A program made the position numbers and the translations under genes. Of a stretch of 64,000 nt of DNA, positions 10,286 to 54,667 are shown in pieces. The number at the start of each line of letters is the position of its first letter. Position 1 is the first letter of the stretch. Origin of the DNA: Shigella phage SSP1. The stretch is taken from the sequence record KY963424; one strand, written 5' to 3'. The notes under the pieces were generated by a model. The model was not told the DNA's origin. It saw only the letters and a program-made list of their open reading frames with translations, and ran no database searches.

Positions 10286-11185
10286 ATGTACTACTCTCTA
10301 ATGAGAGAGTCAAAAGTTATAGTTGAGTATGATGGTAGGGCATTTCATTTTGATGCCCTATCAAACTATGATATACAGACTTCCTACGAGGAATTCAAGA
10401 CTCTTCGTAGGACTGTTCATCGTAGAACTAACTATGCAGACTCTATTATAAATGCTCAAACTCCCTCTTCTATCTCTCTAGCAGTAAATTTCAGTAATAC
10501 TCTTACTGAGGCTAACTTCTTTGAATGGTTAGGTTTTGATAGAAAAGGTAATACTTTCTTACTCCCACTATATAGTAGTAATATTGAACCTATTATGTTC
10601 AATATCTATATAGTAAATAAAGATAATAACTGTGTATATTTTGAAAACTGTTATGTATCTACGGTAGATTTTTCTTTAGATAAGAACATACCAATTCTTA
10701 ATGTTGGTATTGAGTCTGGGAAATTCTCAGAGGTATCTACCTATAGAGAAGCAGCTTCTATTATACAGGGTGAAGTAATGTCTTACAGCCCAGTAATAGC
10801 TTCTACTAATGGCAGCATCTTACCCGGTCTTATTTCTGCCTCTTTATCTTTCCAACAGCAGTGCTCCTGGAGAGAGGATAAGAGTGTTTTTGATATAAAT
10901 AAAATTTATAATAATAAAAGAGCCTATGTAACTGAAATGAATGCTTCGGCAACCATCTCTCTATACTACTTAAAACGTTTTGCAGGAGATATGGTTTATA
11001 ATATAGAACCGGAGATAGATATACCTTTAACGATAAGAAATAATAATATTTCTATAGATTTTCCTTCAGCACGTATTACAAAACGCCTAGAGTTCTCAGA
11101 TGTGTATAGAGTTGAGTGGGATATTATACCTACTGCTTCTTCAGACCCAGTGAGAATAGATTTCTTTGGAGAAATTAAAAAATGA
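10286..11185 (+). CDS. Tail structural protein (p140-like, putative)
   Basis: 299 aa; position after tail tube gene; assignment by synteny only. Confidence 0.35.
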   Translation: MYYSLMRESKVIVEYDGRAFHFDALSNYDIQTSYEEFKTLRRTVHRRTNYADSIINAQTPSSISLAVNFSNTLTEANFFEWLGFDRKGNTFLLPLYSSNIEPIMFNIYIVNKDNNCVYFENCYVSTVDFSLDKNIPILNVGIESGKFSEVSTYREAASIIQGEVMSYSPVIASTNGSILPGLISASLSFQQQCSWREDKSVFDINKIYNNKRAYVTEMNASATISLYYLKRFAGDMVYNIEPEIDIPLTIRNNNISIDFPSARITKRLEFSDVYRVEWDIIPTASSDPVRIDFFGEIKK

Positions 11186-40400: not shown

Positions 40401-41168
40401 TTATTCAGCAGCCGCAGCTTTTGCATCCAGTTTAGCACGCTTAGCGGCACCATCATAGTCCTTAGCAACCAGACCACGACGAGACAGCATAGATTTAACA
40501 CCACGCTCAGACTTACCAGTTTTCTCAGCGATCTCAGCAACAGTCATGTTAACCAGATCCAGACCTTCTAACAGATCTTCACGAGTTTTAGCACTTGAAG
40601 TTTCCTGTACCGGCATAGCAGCGATACGACCTTCACGAAGCAGGCTCAGAGCTTTACCACGGATCTGCTTAATATTGCGGCCGAAGTGAGCAGCGATAGC
40701 TTCAATAGTAGCACCAGCAACAACCTGATTAACAAAATCAGTTTCTTCATCCGGAGTGAAGGAACGAACAGCAGCAGCTTTTTCAGTTGGCTTAACAGAA
40801 GCGGTCATTTCCAGGCTCAGAATCTTACCCTGTACCTGCTTAGCACCGAACTGACCACCAGCTACAGCAGCAGCGATTTCAGCATAGGTATACTGACCAG
40901 CATGAGCGTTCAGGAAATCAACCAGTTCAGCTTCCTGCTCAGGAGTCCACGGGGATTTCTGTACTTCGTTAGCTTTCTGTACTTCAAAACCTTCTTTACG
41001 CAGTTTAGAGCCAACAGAGCGAGCAGTAACGTCTTTGCCAGTTTCAGCAGCCAGTTCAGTAGCGATAGCAGCTACTTGTTCTTGAGAGATTACAGCAACA
41101 CCCAGAGCAGTGGCTTTTGCTTTCAGAGACTCGGTTACACCTTCTACGTTCCAGTTCAGTTTAGACAT
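40401..41168 (-). CDS. DNA-binding protein with four tandem HTH-like repeats (T5 D5-like position, putative)
   Basis: 255 aa; four repeats resembling sigma70 region-4-type HTH (e.g. TIEAIAAHFGRNIKQIRGKALSLLREG; MTVAEIAEKTGKSERGVKSMLSRRGL); host-optimised codon usage. Confidence 0.45.
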   Translation of the reverse strand: MSKLNWNVEGVTESLKAKATALGVAVISQEQVAAIATELAAETGKDVTARSVGSKLRKEGFEVQKANEVQKSPWTPEQEAELVDFLNAHAGQYTYAEIAAAVAGGQFGAKQVQGKILSLEMTASVKPTEKAAAVRSFTPDEETDFVNQVVAGATIEAIAAHFGRNIKQIRGKALSLLREGRIAAMPVQETSSAKTREDLLEGLDLVNMTVAEIAEKTGKSERGVKSMLSRRGLVAKDYDGAAKRAKLDAKAAAAE

Positions 41169-41940
41169 TATTATTTTTCTCCAATAGTTCTTTAATCGAC
41201 AGGATTTCTATCCCATTCGTTTCGGCTTTCTTATAAGATGAGGAAGAACGTTTTGATTCATCCTCACAGATTAGGTATTTGACGTCTTTAGTAACGGATT
41301 TCTTAACCGTATACCCTAGACTTTCTAAATAGTTTGTTGCATCCGTTCTATTTGCAAAATCTTGCAAAGATCCGGTAATACATACCGCGATTCCGTTTGG
41401 CTGGGCAACTAATTCATCTGTAATTATGATATTAGCTTTTGCACCTCTGATACCAGTTGAGAATTTCCACGGTAGTTCGATAACATCCTTGCCTTGTGGG
41501 GAATTTAGCCAGGCTCTATAGTTTTCTCCAGCCTTGCCGTCAGCCTTCACATCGTGGAAGCTAGTGCAATTTTGGGATAATTTCTTTGCTGCAACCTCTC
41601 CAATTAGAGGGATTCCTAAAGAACCGAGAACTGAATCAAAGTCAATGTCTCCGCGAACTTTAGTATTTAATTCGCTAATTAACTTAGCGGCAACCTTGCT
41701 ACCCACGGCTCTAACCAAATCTTCTTCGGTTAGGTAAAACAGTTCTGAAATCTTCGTCAGCTCCAGCTTCTCAATAGTTTTTGGGCCAAAGCCCTTTAAC
41801 TTCATTTTTGTACAGAAGTTCTCAATTAACTTACTTGATTGCGCTGGACAGTTGGACTTATTCCGACAGAATAATTGTCCGTTGACAAGATCTAGCTTAG
41901 AACCACAAGAGGGACATTGTGTTGGAATTTCGATTTTCAT
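41161..41940 (-). CDS. lig: NAD-dependent DNA ligase, C-terminal part (Zn finger, HhH, BRCT) - separate ORF
   Basis: About 259 aa from ATG 41938-41940 (AAGGAAG SD); C4 zinc finger CPSCGSKLDLVNGQLFCRNKSNCPAQ, HhH region, BRCT-like C-terminus. Confidence 0.75.
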   Translation of the reverse strand: MKIEIPTQCPSCGSKLDLVNGQLFCRNKSNCPAQSSKLIENFCTKMKLKGFGPKTIEKLELTKISELFYLTEEDLVRAVGSKVAAKLISELNTKVRGDIDFDSVLGSLGIPLIGEVAAKKLSQNCTSFHDVKADGKAGENYRAWLNSPQGKDVIELPWKFSTGIRGAKANIIITDELVAQPNGIAVCITGSLQDFANRTDATNYLESLGYTVKKSVTKDVKYLICEDESKRSSSSYKKAETNGIEILSIKELLEKNNNV

Positions 41941-41970
41941 CAAATTTCTTCCTTATCAATTTATATAAAT

Positions 41971-41999
41971 ATTATAGCAAGTATTTAAGCATTTAGCAA
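41971..41999 (-). promoter_or_regulatory. sigma70 early promoter inside the gap between the two ligase ORFs
   Basis: - strand: TTGCTA - 17 bp - TATAAT with AT-rich upstream. Confidence 0.6.
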
Positions 42000-42142
42000 C
42001 TACAATTTTAACTAACTTTGCTTACCCTCGCCATAACTTTCTATCCCTCAACTGAATGATAATAGTATATACCTAAGCGGCGAAAATGTCAATAACCACT
42101 TTATAATTCCGATATGGTAGATGGGTAGCAAAGGGTTATGTA

Positions 42143-43114
42143 TTAATCGTATACTCGCTCTACTATGCACGGGATTACACCACCAGCACGAATTACTCGA
42201 ATCTGGCAACCGATCTCTAGATCAAGAGAGTTAATATAATCAACGTTATTAAGAGTCGCTTTAACAATTGTAGCATCATCAATAATTACCGGTTCGAAAT
42301 AACCAACTGGAGTTACTTTACCAGAAGCCCCTACCTGCCACTCAACTTTAGTAAGAGTTGTAATCTCGCCTTCTTCATCCTCTTTAATAGCGAATGCTCC
42401 ACGAGGGAATTTATTAGTCCAGCCTTCTCGGAAGAATTTGTTGTTGTCATTAATACGAACAACTTTACCGTCCGTCGGAATCCATTTAAAGAAGGAACGC
42501 ACATTAACAACTGTTAAGAAATCTTCATTCTCTAGCCAGAGCATATCTTTTAAATATGATTCTGTAATACCTACAGATTCAGCAGAACACTGGATACCAT
42601 ATGCAACGAAGATTAAACCACCTTCCCCGATACGTTGTACGAAATCATCGCTATCTTTGAGGTTAATAGCGCCAGAGGCAAAGTTACGTTTATTTTCTAC
42701 TTCTTTTGTAATTAGAACTTCACCAGTGATTTGAGTAGGTACTTTTTGGGAAATCTTTTGAGGGATATTTAGCAATCTTACGTTGCTTGTGACATCATTC
42801 CCTAGAATACCATTACCACGAGTTAGTGCTTGAACAAAATCTCCATTAATATATAACAGAGAAATCGCACAACCATCTAACTTATCAGTTTCTACCTGAC
42901 CTAATGGATTAAATGGAGGTTTATCTCCACGATTATAATAAACTTTCTGTAAAGAATACATACGATACAGATGTGGAATATCACCTTTAGGCCCGATCTC
43001 TTCTTCTAACGGAAATCTTTTAATCAGACGATCATATTCTTCGTCAGAGATTAAAGACATTCCCTGGTAATATGCTTCTTGACAACGTTTAATAAAGTCT
43101 TTTACATTAGTCAT
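42143..43114 (-). CDS. lig: NAD-dependent DNA ligase, N-terminal part (adenylation + OB domains) - separate ORF
   Basis: 323 aa; adenylation KxDG motif (KLDGCAISLLY) and following nucleotidyltransferase/OB-fold region typical of LigA; ends at a stop codon 199 bp upstream of the C-terminal ORF. Confidence 0.75.
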   Translation of the reverse strand: MTNVKDFIKRCQEAYYQGMSLISDEEYDRLIKRFPLEEEIGPKGDIPHLYRMYSLQKVYYNRGDKPPFNPLGQVETDKLDGCAISLLYINGDFVQALTRGNGILGNDVTSNVRLLNIPQKISQKVPTQITGEVLITKEVENKRNFASGAINLKDSDDFVQRIGEGGLIFVAYGIQCSAESVGITESYLKDMLWLENEDFLTVVNVRSFFKWIPTDGKVVRINDNNKFFREGWTNKFPRGAFAIKEDEEGEITTLTKVEWQVGASGKVTPVGYFEPVIIDDATIVKATLNNVDYINSLDLEIGCQIRVIRAGGVIPCIVERVYD

Positions 43115-48592: not shown

Positions 48593-49089
48593 AACAATAC
48601 TCCTGTATTGATTAATCGAAATCTTTTCTTTAGGACTATTCAGAAAGAATAGAACAACTATTACTACTATTTACGTAAACATCAATTATCATCAAACAAT
48701 ATGAATAAGTTATCATATCTCAGTGCTGTGCTCTCTTCGCTCATATACAGAATAGAACCTAGGTCATTGGCCGCTAAGCCGATTCTATTTGTCCTCACTA
48801 TCCTATTGGTAGGTGACTACTGTACGTGCCGCCATTCGCTGCTCTTTTCGTTCGCACCCCCATATAAAGCTCTGCCTATATAACGAGCTAAATATGCACG
48901 GTTTGGATTTACCTTTCCGAATTCAGGGTACACAGATCACTTAATTGAAGATTAACTAATGCAATATAAACACTAGTAATAGTTAAAACAACCCTTAATG
49001 GGGCAGCCTAACTGTTCCGTATCGCGGATTGTAAACAAGAAAAATTAGCAAAATCAATTTTTACTAATGTCTCTCAATTCAATATAAAT

Positions 49090-49212: not shown

Positions 49213-49602
49213 TTAGTCATTTAATCCCGGAACATAGATCCCAACACGGTTTAATTGTTCTTTAGCTTCTTTGAGAATATCTGGAGTGTACTCCCAAATA
49301 TCATCTTCCACCTGTAAAAGATGGGGCGAACAACCGTCATCCGGCACACGGCATATGGCCAAACCACGTGGGTGGAACAAAGAGAAATTTAGGGCAACAA
49401 TTAAACCCATAGCAGACAATTCATTCCAATCCAATTCCCATTCCCCCGCGTAGCCGGATAGGAAAACACCAACACAGGGATCATCTATTTGCTGCTCCGG
49501 AAAAGTGAAGGAGGCTTGTCTTACCCCCAACCAACGTTGTAGCAGCTTCTCCGCACGTTTCACCAAACTAGGATCAATCTGACGCCAATATACTTGTTCC
49601 AT
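49213..49602 (-). CDS. Hypothetical protein, paralog 1 of tandem pair
   Basis: 129 aa; shares collinear motifs with the adjacent 142-aa ORF (IDD.PC.G ... W.EL..MGL..ALN..LF.P ... Y.P ... G...PGL). Confidence 0.5.
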   Translation of the reverse strand: MEQVYWRQIDPSLVKRAEKLLQRWLGVRQASFTFPEQQIDDPCVGVFLSGYAGEWELDWNELSAMGLIVALNFSLFHPRGLAICRVPDDGCSPHLLQVEDDIWEYTPDILKEAKEQLNRVGIYVPGLND

Positions 49603-49611
49603 TGTGCCCCC

Positions 49612-50040
49612 TTAGGCAGTTAAACCTGGGATCATATACCCGAAACGTCGAAGTTTCTGAATCCCCTCATTTACTTCTTCCGGTGAGTAAGACCAACCAT
49701 AACGTTCATTAACCTGAAAACCAGGAGATTCACTAGTTTTATAGTTAACAACGAGGCGATGCTTAGCAGGCATAAACAGCTTATAGTTTAACGCAAAAAC
49801 TAAGCCCATTTCATCTAACTCTTTCCAGCCGACAATCTCTTCAAGACCCTCCTCTACCTGAACAATTAAACCAATACAGGGAGCCTCATCAATATCATCT
49901 TTAAAAGCAAAGGAGATTTCGTTATTCTCACACCATATTTTCAAAGAGTTAATAGCCTCATTATACAGGCTAGCTGGGAGAGTACGCCAAAAGTTAACCA
50001 AAATTGGATTAGCTTCTTTAGAGAATACATTATTGAACAT
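49612..50040 (-). CDS. Hypothetical protein, paralog 2 of tandem pair
   Basis: 142 aa; see paralog 1. Confidence 0.5.
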   Translation of the reverse strand: MFNNVFSKEANPILVNFWRTLPASLYNEAINSLKIWCENNEISFAFKDDIDEAPCIGLIVQVEEGLEEIVGWKELDEMGLVFALNYKLFMPAKHRLVVNYKTSESPGFQVNERYGWSYSPEEVNEGIQKLRRFGYMIPGLTA

Positions 50041-50042
50041 AT

Positions 50043-50555
50043 TTACACCTTAAATTGTTGTAGGGCTTTACACATTTCAAGATCTGGACTAAATTCTAAC
50101 ATATAGCTAACAGCTCTTAAATCTTGAAGATTTATCCCAGTTCTACCATTGACTATAACTGTTGGATACTGATACATCATAGCACCGGCATCATCCAGCA
50201 CACACCAATGTTTGAGCCTATGCTTTTCAACGAAGCGAAGAACAGAATTACCCCTAGATAATCCACCCCCAGTAAAATCCGTTGTACCAAGAAAACGATC
50301 GATAAGGCCTAATCCGGTCATAATCTGAACGTTCTCCATCTCATTTCTGACAGAGAACCAAGATGATACTCCAACAATCATTATCGGAGAAGGACGAATA
50401 AAGTCCTGAAAAGCCTTGAGAAGCGGTTTGAAAACCCAGTCACTTCCAAAGAAAATCTTTTCATCATCAGGTGCATGATGGTGGGAGATGCTCGAATTGA
50501 GCACCCCATCAATGTCTAGAAAAATAATTGGAATATTACTTATTTCCTGACACAT
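50043..50555 (-). CDS. HAD-superfamily phosphatase (nucleotidase-like)
   Basis: 170 aa; HAD motif I FLDIDGVLN, motif II-like VGVSSW, motif III/IV K ... VLDDAG. Confidence 0.6.
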   Translation of the reverse strand: MCQEISNIPIIFLDIDGVLNSSISHHHAPDDEKIFFGSDWVFKPLLKAFQDFIRPSPIMIVGVSSWFSVRNEMENVQIMTGLGLIDRFLGTTDFTGGGLSRGNSVLRFVEKHRLKHWCVLDDAGAMMYQYPTVIVNGRTGINLQDLRAVSYMLEFSPDLEMCKALQQFKV

Positions 50556-51351
50556 AAGGTCTACCCCCTAAATGAGCTTCTACACGAGCAATAAAATCAG
50601 TATCACTGAAAGCATCTACCGCACCTTTACTCCAGTAAGGGATACCGCGTTCTTCCAGCTGGTACATCTCACTACGAGTCATACCTTGATAGCTCGGTTC
50701 CGCCGCTAGTACACTATCATAGTAGTTAACAACCATAAGTTTCGCAGCAGTCAAATTAAGAACAGGAAATAATTCCCAATAGAAGTTAATTACTTGGTTA
50801 GAGCAACCAACCACAATGATCATATCTTGACTAGTAATACCATCAAAAACATTATACATTTCTGCATACGCTGGAGCATGCTCCCCAAAGAAGACTACAT
50901 TAGGTTTAACCCATTTATAATCATCTGGGTCAATAGAATTGTATCCTACATCAATAATCCGTTTATTGCTACTATTGTAGCTATCAGCTACAACAACCTC
51001 TTTTAAATATCCGTGAATGTGCAGAATGTCACTATGTGGAACGCCAGCACGCTCAATAAGGTCATCAACGTTGGTAGTCAAGTTTACTACTTGACCTGGG
51101 TATTGTTTATACCATTCACCAATACGCAAATGCGCAAGATTGGGTTCAACAGTTTTTAGCTCTTCACGACGCTTGTTGTAAAACATATGGGTTTTATGGT
51201 AAAAATTACCACGAAAGGCATGAATATTACACACTTCTTCTAGATCATAATCATCCCACAATGCTTTACCACTAGCAGTATCAGTACGAAAAGCTCGTAC
51301 ACCACTTTCAACACTCAAACCTGCACCGCTAATAATAATTAACCTACGCAC
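50536..51351 (-). CDS. SIR2-family (sirtuin-like) NAD-binding protein lacking the zinc ribbon
   Basis: 271 aa; ISGAGLSVESGVRAFR (sirtuin GAGIS.ESGIP.FR), TTNVDDLIERAG ... HIHG (TQNID.L ... HG), NVVFFGE, IIVVGCSNQV (VVGTS-like); no CxxC pairs. Confidence 0.7.
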   Translation of the reverse strand: MRRLIIISGAGLSVESGVRAFRTDTASGKALWDDYDLEEVCNIHAFRGNFYHKTHMFYNKRREELKTVEPNLAHLRIGEWYKQYPGQVVNLTTNVDDLIERAGVPHSDILHIHGYLKEVVVADSYNSSNKRIIDVGYNSIDPDDYKWVKPNVVFFGEHAPAYAEMYNVFDGITSQDMIIVVGCSNQVINFYWELFPVLNLTAAKLMVVNYYDSVLAAEPSYQGMTRSEMYQLEERGIPYWSKGAVDAFSDTDFIARVEAHLGGRPYVSGNK

Positions 51352-51545
51352 TATACGATTCCTCGCTTAAATCCTTCGATAATATTTCGGAGTAAAATTG
51401 CTTCCTCCGGGCGTACCTTTTCTTGCTTAATAAGCATATCCAATCCAGCAATACAACTAGCTACACCAGCATTATAACCAGAGTTCCATTGCTCAATAAG
51501 CATGTTTTCTAGATTACTTTTTAGACTCTGATTCAAGAAGTCCAT
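51351..51545 (-). CDS. Hypothetical small protein
   Basis: 64-aa ORF. Confidence 0.3.
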   Translation of the reverse strand: MDFLNQSLKSNLENMLIEQWNSGYNAGVASCIAGLDMLIKQEKVRPEEAILLRNIIEGFKRGIV

Positions 51546-51717
51546 AAAGTTTCTCCTCTAGTTCCATAACACGATTTTCATAAGAAGCACGCAACTTTTC
51601 AATTGCCAGCGCACGCACTGTAACCTCATTAGAATTAATAGCTAACTGGGCCAGGTCTTCTGTTTCCATACGTCCGTTGTAAATTAAGCGATATTTAAGA
51701 TGTTTTACGTTTTTCAT
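51514..51717 (-). CDS. Hypothetical small protein
   Basis: 67-aa ORF. Confidence 0.3.
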   Translation of the reverse strand: MKNVKHLKYRLIYNGRMETEDLAQLAINSNEVTVRALAIEKLRASYENRVMELEEKLYGLLESESKK

Positions 51718-51726
51718 TCTTGTTCC

Positions 51727-52008
51727 TTAGTTCTGTACTGTAAACTCATTCTTATCACAGTGAGCATAATAATACCCATACATACGATAAATTTTCACAG
51801 CCTTAGTAGACCCCTTCGATTCTTCATAATCAATCCAGAGCCACTTGTCTTTACCTACATAATGTACCCGAAACTTCTTAACTTTCTTATCATTCCATGT
51901 TGCAACAACACGACGATAATCAAATCCACCCAACCAATCTAGAGCCTTACGTTCTTCACTAGGCTCTCCAAGATGGGAGACATCTACTTTAGGAAGCAAC
52001 TCGCTCAT
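51727..52008 (-). CDS. Hypothetical protein
   Basis: 93-aa ORF with GAGGAG SD, directly downstream of an early promoter. Confidence 0.45.
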   Translation of the reverse strand: MSELLPKVDVSHLGEPSEERKALDWLGGFDYRRVVATWNDKKVKKFRVHYVGKDKWLWIDYEESKGSTKAVKIYRMYGYYYAHCDKNEFTVQN

Positions 52009-52066: not shown

Positions 52067-52100
52067 TAAAATAAAAGCCAGGTCGACTAGCAACCCGGCT
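52067..52100 (-). terminator. Rho-independent terminator after nrdD
   Basis: - strand: 8-bp stem (AGCCGGGT/ACCTGGCT, one G-U pair) with 9-nt loop followed by TTTTATTTT. Confidence 0.55.
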
Positions 52101-54011: not shown

Positions 54012-54040
54012 ATTATAACTCATTCGAGGGCGGATGTCAA
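54012..54040 (-). promoter_or_regulatory. Consensus sigma70 promoter for nrdD
   Basis: - strand: TTGACA - 17 bp - TATAAT (perfect consensus hexamers). Confidence 0.65.
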
Positions 54041-54109: not shown

Positions 54110-54138
54110 TTGACACCACCGTAACTTTTGTATAAGAT
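54110..54138 (+). promoter_or_regulatory. Putative divergent promoter for HNH endonuclease gene
   Basis: TTGACA at 54110-54115 with TATAAG/TAAGAT 15-17 bp downstream; weaker -10. Confidence 0.35.
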
Positions 54139-54175: not shown

Positions 54176-54667
54176 ATGAACACTGAAATAACACAAGACC
54201 TACTAAGAACTTACTTTGACTATAAAGATGGAGAATTGTTTTACAAACCAACTTATAAAACCCCTGCAGGAAGAATATCCAAAAAAGCAGGTAAATCCGC
54301 CAGACTAACTCCGAGTAACGGGTACTATCGTATAAATGTACCAAGAATAGGTGTACAGAAAGAACATAGGATGATTTTCCTATATCATGAAGGATACCTA
54401 CCAGAAGTAGTAGATCATATTGATAGGGATAAGGAAAATAATAGGATAGAGAACCTTAGGGCATCTAATCTTCAGGACAACGCTATTAATCGCTCCATAA
54501 GTAAGAGTAACACCTCTGGCATTGTGGGTGTCCATTATGATGAATCGTATGGTAAGTGGGTTGTAACGTATAGGGGTAAGTACTTTGGAAGATTTGATAC
54601 CAAAGAAGAAGCTGCCGAAGTTAATGCTAATGTTCGTGCCCTTGATCAAACCCGTATAAATAGTTGA
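54176..54667 (+). CDS. HNH homing endonuclease with AP2-type DNA-binding domain
   Basis: 163 aa; HNH_3-type motif (YLPEVVDHIDRDKENNRIENLRASNLQDN) followed by AP2-like segment (GIVGVHYDESYGKWVVTYRGKYFGRFDTKEEAA). Confidence 0.7.
   Translation: MNTEITQDLLRTYFDYKDGELFYKPTYKTPAGRISKKAGKSARLTPSNGYYRINVPRIGVQKEHRMIFLYHEGYLPEVVDHIDRDKENNRIENLRASNLQDNAINRSISKSNTSGIVGVHYDESYGKWVVTYRGKYFGRFDTKEEAAEVNANVRALDQTRINS

Follow-up and report, generated by a model that had tools for sequence, protein, structure and literature searches.

We analysed a stretch of 64,000 nucleotides from Shigella phage SSP1 (sequence record KY963424; in the following, the window) and focused on two adjacent genes that encode a sirtuin and a phosphatase of the HAD family. 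Judged from the sequences, T5-like phages conserve this locus as a non-essential module of early genes, at whose centre are two enzymes that appear catalytically intact. One is predicted to be a genuine canonical sirtuin of the deacylase type (CobB-like), with the full predicted NAD+-binding and catalytic set, and the other a cap-less HAD_SAK_2 enzyme whose catalytic motifs appear complete. The gene pair is already known and a published hypothesis on its function is attached to it. The main value of our analysis lies in correcting the reading of the sirtuin as a defence-type SIR2 protein, and its one new lead is a link between the HAD gene and the NARP1 operons of other phages. Both open reading frames (ORFs) lie on the minus strand:

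50536–51351, minus strand: sirtuin, zinc-ligand-free and class-III-like; 271 amino acids, GTG start; orthologue of T5.102 ('Sir2-like')
50043–50555, minus strand: HAD phosphatase, cap-less, HAD_SAK_2 family; 170 amino acids, ATG start; orthologue of T5.105

The sirtuin matches the Pfam family PF02146 (SIR2) with an E-value of 2.5e-25 and 89.9 bits (cut-off 24) across profile positions 1–178 of 180. This is the only Pfam match of the protein, which also matches phrog_2162 (E 1e-120). A preliminary description of this DNA had identified a sirtuin from its NAD+-site motifs, and this identification holds. The quoted motifs are present and their residues (G9, A10, G11, S13, F21, R22, N94, D96, H113, G114, F154, F155 and E157) are invariant in an alignment of 32 clade members; N94 and H113, the catalytic Asn and His, are found in all 150 of 150 representatives. 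Thr93 stands where canonical sirtuins have the Gln of TQNxD. Furthermore, the Tyr-x-x-Arg pair of class III, Y58 and R61, is invariant in the 32 clade members. In a phmmer alignment mapped position by position onto CobB numbering, these two residues align to CobB Y92 and R95, which we take to be the residues that hold the carboxylate of the succinyl group in class III sirtuins. The same mapping equates C41 with A76 and V95 with I131.

A sequence comparison to solved structures ranks Escherichia coli CobB first (1s5p, E 1.3e-17), followed by archaeal Sir2 and SIRT5. An AlphaFold (AF2) model of the sirtuin, with a predicted local distance difference test score (pLDDT) of 89 and a predicted template modelling (TM) score of 0.87, was compared to the PDB with Foldseek. 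CobB is again found first (E 4e-17, TM 0.83), and the top 50 matches are all deacylase sirtuins (CobB, Sir2Af, Sir2Tm, SIRT5 and SIRT2). The expected sirtuin fold is thus recovered in the model, whereas no defence SIR2 of the ThsA/DSR2 type, with which a comparison had been proposed, appears among these 50.

The lack of zinc-binding cysteines had also been described correctly. The protein has two cysteines only, C41 and C193, and neither is within the zinc-module region (residues 114–152); none of the 32 clade members has a cysteine in this region, and all are without the CxxC...CxxC zinc ligands. At the same site, the model predicts a three-stranded sheet (114–122, 131–134 and 147–152). According to the model, the protein still has the small domain and has lost no more than the metal ligands, so that 'zinc-ligand-less' fits the predicted structure better than the earlier term 'zinc-ribbon-less'. 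The earlier description took such an architecture as typical of NAD-cleaving SIR2 effectors and not of deacetylases, and this does not hold. In addition to having PF02146 as its only family and deacylases as its closest folds, the protein has no match in PADLOC (E up to 0.01) and no SIR2_2-type Pfam match, and it is a stand-alone protein of 271 residues with no sensor or regulatory domain and with the small domain kept. On the Pfam, PADLOC and fold results, we rejected the reading as a defence-type SIR2.

The phage proteins also differ from typical CobB. The sirtuin does not reach CobB equivalog status in NCBIfam, where the best score is 101 bits against 243 and NF040867 gives 90.9 against 320 (model cut-offs 221–395). 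The phage clade has its own signature, in which TQN is replaced by TTN, the zinc ligands are lost and GTSxxVxP is replaced by GCSNQVINF. A wide search found 3006 relatives of the sirtuin, and the Gln position and the zinc-module cysteines were tallied for the 149 best full-length representatives (among the top 150, P0156–P0305). Two or fewer zinc-module cysteines are found in 56 of the 149, and their loss goes with the replacement of Gln by Thr in TQNxD: 77 representatives combine Gln with at least three cysteines and 39 combine a residue other than Gln with two or fewer, compared to 17 with Gln and two or fewer cysteines and 16 with another residue and at least three. The nearest zinc-containing relative that we examined (P0172) is 44% identical. 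It is found in a cellular context, probably of a Mollicute, among metabolic and membrane-protein genes, and adjoins a lipoate-protein ligase gene. Because cysteine loss is paired with the Gln-to-Thr change among the relatives, and because this zinc-containing relative is cellular, the phage clade appears to be a branch derived from small sirtuins of the ordinary kind. Compared to its zinc-containing relatives, this clade has a mean net charge of −11.6 instead of −4.0 and an isoelectric point of 5.2 instead of 6.5. Among the longer sirtuin relatives, the only domain fusions are tandem Sir2, WG repeats and RHS repeats. A literature search found no experimental or biochemical study of this sirtuin.

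The neighbouring gene had been described as a HAD phosphatase, and this is confirmed: it matches PF18143 (HAD_SAK_2) with an E-value of 7.5e-20 and 72.1 bits (cut-off 27.5). Across 26 homologues, the motifs D14-x-D16 (motif I), S64/S65 (motif II), R101 (position of motif III) and D121 (motif IV) are invariant, and D122 is nearly so (at least 90%). The structural model shows a HAD fold (pLDDT 95) that consists of a cap-less core with an open active site. A sequence relative in the PDB was not found, even by profile. In PHROGs, the protein belongs to the unnamed phrog_1818; over its C-terminal half there is also a match to phrog_18062, a family that bears the label 'Sir2'. Due to this label, the RefSeq record of Salmonella phage Spc35 contains two 'Sir2' genes, since the HAD gene is annotated in such records as 'Sir2 (NAD-dependent deacetylase)'. 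The label probably originates from phage DT57C, where a deletion fuses the N-terminus of the sirtuin to the C-terminus of HAD and the product is annotated as 'defective'. Besides the window, the loci concerned by this labelling are L001 7216–7728 and L171 2354–2626.

A DNA search with 3.1 kb around the gene pair matches 531 phage records. The best matches are the Salmonella phages Th1 and Spc35 (97.9% identity; genus Tequintavirus, family Demerecviridae), and the HAD gene is present in 473 records (tblastn). The genome is T5-like, which agrees with the earlier classification as a virulent phage. In the window, the pair belongs to a run of genes on the minus strand with the order nrdD (anaerobic ribonucleotide reductase), hairpin, three small ORFs of 93, 67 and 64 residues, sirtuin, HAD, DUF7415a and DUF7415b. 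The remaining features of the run are:

52076–52100, minus strand: terminator-like hairpin after nrdD; stem of 10 bp, 6 of them G-C pairs, and a T tract; consensus match only
51727–52008, minus strand: small conserved ORF of 93 amino acids, first cluster gene after nrdD; phrog_7953, in many T5-like loci
51514–51717, minus strand: small conserved ORF of 67 amino acids; phrog_5236, orthologue of T5.101
51351–51545, minus strand: small conserved ORF of 64 amino acids, directly upstream of the sirtuin; phrog_5827, conserved in T5-like loci
49612–50040, minus strand: DUF7415 protein a; PF24187 (E 5e-36), orthologue of T5.106
49213–49602, minus strand: DUF7415 protein b; PF24187 (E 9e-32), orthologue of T5.107 and paralogue of DUF7415a

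The hairpin at 52076–52100 forms the upstream edge of the cluster. The GTG start of the sirtuin, which is served by the Shine-Dalgarno sequence GAGGA, shares one nucleotide with the upstream stop codon (TAGTG); the reading frames of the sirtuin and HAD overlap by 20 nucleotides, with a Shine-Dalgarno-like GGGGG run before the HAD ATG, and two nucleotides separate the HAD stop codon from the ATG of DUF7415a. The overlap agrees with the proposal that the sirtuin and HAD are translationally coupled in this phage. This proposal cannot be extended to the relatives, as the overlap is found in only three of 22 T5-like loci checked. In T5 and most relatives, the two genes are 155–459 bp apart, and the spacer holds one small ORF or two, each about 60 residues long (phrog_5116; T5.103 and T5.104 in T5, L102 8819–9142). 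The window (at 50536–50555) and Spc35 are without these spacer ORFs, which constitutes an insertion/deletion polymorphism. We conclude that the adjacency of sirtuin and HAD is conserved whereas their coupling is not, the latter being specific to a Spc35-like subgroup.

The two DUF7415 proteins are 32% identical and their genes adjoin the sirtuin/HAD pair in T5-like loci; DUF7415a has no relative in the PDB. They accompany the sirtuin even without HAD in two loci (L144 and L145, 8969–9762), and two contigs of jumbo phages (221 kb; L031 and L034, about 10296–10535) have a DUF7415-like ORF at a distance of 2 kb from a HAD gene. The surroundings of the cluster contain no Rfam match and no notable repeats, and the window has no tRNA genes. 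A non-coding stretch of about 480 bp (48593–49073) separates the cluster from a gene of 929 codons that is labelled 'replication origin binding' in Spc35 (helicase/primase); this stretch has short, weak direct and inverted repeats only and no Rfam match. On the other side, a sigma-70 promoter with a 12/12 consensus match (TTGACA, 17 nucleotides, TATAAT) faces nrdD at 54012–54040 on the minus strand. A divergent promoter-like site (10/12) at 54110–54138 on the plus strand faces an ORF at 54176–54667, which by eye resembles an HNH homing endonuclease and is a candidate for such a gene. The early-gene block of the sirtuin also contains, at a distance of about 7 kb, the minus-strand ORFs 41161–41943 and 42143–43114, which match by position two 'NAD-dependent DNA ligase' genes of Spc35 (SPC35_0107 and SPC35_0108). 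This split ligase is another consumer of NAD+.

To compare neighbourhoods across phages, we surveyed 59 sirtuin and 79 HAD loci from IMG/VR together with contigs from protein databases, where all ORFs were scored with hidden Markov models and reference sets. All T5-like loci have the order small ORFs, SIR2, HAD, DUF7415a, DUF7415b. In a second lineage of Demerecviridae, the order is inverted to HAD, one gene, SIR2 (L008, L150 and Enterobacter phage KKP_3711). The persistence of the linkage through this rearrangement supports a functional tie between the sirtuin and HAD. The ORF of about 116 residues that follows HAD in L150, in the sirtuin context, shows no similarity to DUF7415b or to the ORF of that size after HAD in L149, where the context is NARP1.

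The sirtuin is 52–66% identical to V5-like and other phage members. Orthologues in the Vequintavirinae (V5-like phages) are 48–64% identical and lie in a cluster with the order Metallophos, Rnl1 RNA ligase, cREC, AAA_33 kinase, SIR2, DNA ligase. In these loci, Adps and Namat, the genes of NARP1, are found about 5 kb upstream, and in most of them a NADAR gene is found about 5 kb downstream. For 37 diverged sirtuin loci, we assigned the genes within 8 kb to exclusive categories. RNA-repair genes are present in 13 loci, HAD in six, DUF7415 only in two and NARP1 genes only in two. Overall, NARP1 genes occur within 8 kb in ten of the 37 loci; eight of these also have RNA-repair genes and are counted among the 13.

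The phage sirtuins have previously been recognized as a distinct clade with three types of neighbourhood, for which a KptA-like removal of 2'-phosphates from RNA was proposed (Iyer, Burroughs, Anantharaman and Aravind, Viruses 2022, PMC9503650, section 3.7.3). The third type, typified by Escherichia phage SP15, combines the sirtuin with a HAD that is termed 'Swiss-army-knife-like' (PMC9503650). SP15 is a Tequintavirus and its HAD is 97.6% identical to that of the window. Our survey reproduces the second (V5-like phages) and the third type, and the sirtuin of the window is an orthologue of the members of this RNA-repair clade (SP15-, V5- and Mydo-type).

Our new lead concerns HAD. Outside the Demerecviridae, the HAD relatives closest to the T5 type are about 38% identical and lie inside a NARP1 operon, where they overlap Adps by four nucleotides. 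The order of this operon is predicted winged-helix protein, HAD, Adps, Namat. Carriers are the Serratia phages ChuuTotoro and Kashira (H88), Acinetobacter phage ABPH49 and one metagenomic contig; the three named phages belong to the Vequintavirinae. The loci, which cover ChuuTotoro, ABPH49 and the metagenomic contig, are L006 6001–9217, L007 6001–9222, L149 6001–9569 and L175 19603–23217. In ChuuTotoro, neither a sirtuin nor an Rnl1 module is found within 20 kb on each side of HAD. More distant HAD_SAK_2 genes adjoin NAMPT/NadM and RNA ligase genes. A further case of HAD_SAK_2 within a block for NAD+ and nucleotide salvage is found in a 110-kb viral contig (L039 4032–10258), with NUDIX, NAMPT, two unknown ORFs, two tandem HAD_SAK_2 genes, one ORF and an NT5C nucleotidase. 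No NARP1 genes were found in the window. NARP3 (PnuC and NadR) has been reported in some Salmonella and Escherichia phages; the annotation of Spc35 lists no such product between 20,000 and 105,000, and we do not claim it for the phage of the window.

The position of HAD in these operons has a parallel. Defence proteins with a RES domain convert NAD+ to ADP-ribose 1''-phosphate, which NARP1 cannot use, and some NARP1 operons (NARP1-AP) carry a macro-domain phosphatase, Adpp, that restores ADP-ribose (Osterman et al. 2026, preprint 10.64898/2026.01.28.702374). HAD proteins are not mentioned in that preprint (10.64898/2026.01.28.702374). Since HAD holds the equivalent place in a NARP1 operon, and since a phosphatase that feeds ADP-ribose to Adps would make sense there, HAD is a candidate non-homologous counterpart of Adpp; this proposal is based on gene position alone, in one small phage lineage. 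A reversal of the RES-type phosphorolysis by the sirtuin (ADP-ribose 1''-phosphate and nicotinamide to NAD+) was considered and rejected on thermodynamic grounds, according to our own estimate.

Both genes seem to be dispensable under laboratory conditions. In the CRISPRi-ART screen of T5, the sirtuin (T5.102) and HAD (T5.105) were called 'Not Fit' (PMC11879866, supplementary file 16), and T5.107 (DUF7415b) was the only gene of the cluster called 'Fit' (PMC11879866). Independently of this screen, the viable deletion in DT57C destroys both genes and shows that the sirtuin and HAD are dispensable in laboratory hosts. This dispensability fits a conditional role of the module.

How the two enzymes might work together can be outlined in a combined model, which we favour only tentatively, where the sirtuin acts on a 2'-phosphate acceptor and HAD removes phosphate. 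The sirtuin would take NAD+ as a donor of ADP-ribose to an anionic oxygen nucleophile that is held by the Tyr-Arg pocket, most likely a 2'-phosphate on a broken tRNA or mRNA. A release as in Tpt1/KptA would yield nicotinamide and ADP-ribose 1'',2''-cyclic phosphate. HAD would then strip the phosphate from the RNA end or, slightly likelier, from the ADP-ribose phosphate by-product, leaving ADP-ribose itself. Only in hosts that attack the translation of the phage or the pools of NAD+ would the module then be of importance. Deacylation by sirtuins and dephosphorylation by Tpt1 run in parallel, as in both an oxygen attacks C1'' and the ribose 2''-OH attacks afterwards; for this reason, a 2'-phosphate acceptor is chemically plausible. 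Such an acceptor also fits the V5-like operons, where the kinase, the predicted cyclic phosphodiesterase (cREC), the ligase and the sirtuin make up a full fungal-type tRNA ligation set. The placement of HAD in NARP1 operons suggests that an ADP-ribose phosphate might be the substrate of HAD. The combined model is favoured by the linkage of the sirtuin to RNA-repair, NARP1 and HAD genes across phages. It would also agree with the earlier suggestion that the pair manipulates NAD+ or ADP-ribose, which is reasonable; the accompanying idea of counter-defence is plausible and generic.

Several observations weigh against the combined model. All of its mechanistic steps rest on gene context. None of the tested partners is found within 8 kb in 14 of the 37 diverged sirtuin loci; in three of these, the Rnl1 module and NARP1 lie 25–30 kb off in the same genome, and in one the Rnl1 and the kinase are missing from the module. 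An in-place swap of the sirtuin and KptA was not seen in ECO340P2-like phages, where the examined slot holds three small ORFs, none of the size of KptA. With V5-like references, the window yielded neither an RNA ligase nor a polynucleotide kinase, and neither is annotated in Spc35 between 20,000 and 105,000; for RNA repair, the phage would therefore depend on enzymes of the host. The strong acidity of the clade is unusual for an RNA-binding enzyme, and its 44% identical zinc-containing relative resides in a cellular context of metabolic and membrane genes. As far as can be judged from the sequence, the Tyr-x-x-Arg pair and every other conserved residue would suit a desuccinylase equally well. 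Lastly, the negative calls of CRISPRi-ART are weak evidence because the replication gene T5.108 (helicase/primase, 'replication origin binding') was also called 'Not Fit' (PMC11879866).

Among the other explanations, one is possible and nearly as likely as the combined model. In this explanation, the sirtuin is an ordinary lysine deacylase that depends on NAD+, either a deacetylase or a desuccinylase like CobB/SIRT5, and takes acyl marks off host or phage proteins during takeover; the HAD neighbour would then be functionally independent or act on another product. The closest characterized relatives by sequence and by fold are all deacylases; the catalytic residues His, Asn and Asp are invariant, as are the FGE loop and the pair for succinyl recognition; the context of the 44% identical relative agrees with such a role, and an acidic surface is no obstacle to the binding of peptides. 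However, the NCBIfam scores for CobB-type proteins are far under the cut-offs (101 compared to 243 bits), and the clade has the signature of its own described above (TTN, lost zinc ligands, GCSNQVINF). Furthermore, a plain deacylase leaves the repeated linkage to RNA-repair, NARP1 and HAD genes unexplained, and neither an acyltransferase partner nor a target is evident.

The two further explanations are less likely. The effector proposed earlier, a NADase-type SIR2 that splits NAD+ into nicotinamide and ADP-ribose in order to shut off the host, exclude superinfection or destroy a signal, with HAD processing a nucleotide signal, is improbable. SIR2 domains without zinc are common among defence NADases, and the phage handles NAD+ elsewhere with its split NAD+-dependent DNA ligase (41161–43114). 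Against the effector stand the missing PADLOC and SIR2_2-type matches, the lack of a defence SIR2 structure among the best folds and the lack of a sensor domain. Moreover, deliberate depletion of NAD+ is unlikely because the ligase of the phage needs NAD+ and because related phages pair the sirtuin with genes that rebuild it. Equally improbable is a SirTM-like macromolecular ADP-ribosyltransferase that acts on a protein or nucleic acid of the host, with HAD trimming a phosphate on the adduct or the target. The catalytic core is intact and some sirtuins have this activity (cited in PMC9503650), but the cluster has no adjacent macro-domain gene, which is the hallmark of SirTM systems and whose absence was likewise remarked by Iyer et al. 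(PMC9503650), and the context suggests no target.

Returning to the combined model, its components can be joined into a more specific proposal: the phage sirtuin might be a Tpt1-like RNA 2'-phosphotransferase or a generator of phospho-ADP-ribose, and HAD might be the non-homologous counterpart of Adpp, which in Vequintavirinae would feed NARP1 directly. We consider this proposal doubtful. If it were true, it would mean new chemistry for the sirtuin fold, and HAD would turn ADP-ribose 1''-phosphate (or its cyclic or 2'-phosphate forms) into ADP-ribose. The result would be a second, independently evolved combination of NARP1 with a phosphatase and a possible counter to RES-type NAD+ phosphorylase defences. 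Known roles of sirtuins are protein deacylases, occasional ADP-ribosyltransferases and defence NADases; with a phosphate acceptor, the fold would gain a fourth activity and RNA repair a new route that depends on NAD+. The clade is present in hundreds of T5-like and V5-like phage genomes, where it may use sirtuin chemistry on a phosphate acceptor and would then join the phage counter-measures to anticodon nucleases with those to NAD+ depletion. The link between HAD and NARP1 offers a cheap entry point for experiments, as the assay is already published for the macro-domain Adpp.

When comparing the module to known systems, we find that the sirtuin shares with CobB and SIRT5 the motifs GAGxS, FR, N, D, HG and FGE, the Tyr-x-x-Arg pair and the Rossmann plus small domain. 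It differs from them in that it is only 24–26% identical, is without the zinc-ligand cysteines, has Thr for the Gln of TQNxD, has an altered strand after GxS and has an extra C-terminal helical segment. With Tpt1/KptA, the likeness is a proposed functional analogy only: both would use NAD+ and an anionic oxygen on C1'' followed by attack of the ribose 2''-OH, and the gene neighbourhoods of both include RNA ligases, kinases and proteins like cyclic phosphodiesterases. Tpt1/KptA has an ADP-ribosyltransferase fold whereas the sirtuin has a Rossmann fold, is acidic, has no PF01885 match and is not a member of that family, and an in-place swap was not seen. The defence SIR2 NADases (ThsA, DSR1/DSR2, Sir2-HerA and the SIR2-associated short Argonaute) belong to the same superfamily and likewise lack zinc cysteines. 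In contrast to these, the sirtuin keeps the small domain, has no SLOG, HerA, Argonaute or long C-terminal domain and no partner ATPase, and is encoded by a phage within a block of replication and nucleotide-metabolism genes.

HAD shares the DxD nucleophile motif and the cap-less core with the phosphatase domain of T4 polynucleotide kinase, MDP-1 and Scp1/Fcp1, and the name of its Pfam family, HAD_SAK_2, ties it to RNA repair. HAD_SAK_2 orthologues hold the place of Adpp in the NARP1 operons of three Vequintavirinae phages; Adpp has a macro-domain (Poa1p-like) fold whereas the phage protein has a HAD fold, so that only the operon position is analogous. Finally, compared to the clade of Iyer et al., we find the same locus and no structural difference; the HAD genes in NARP1 operons, the acidic charge of the sirtuin and the evidence for the dispensability of the module go beyond that description.

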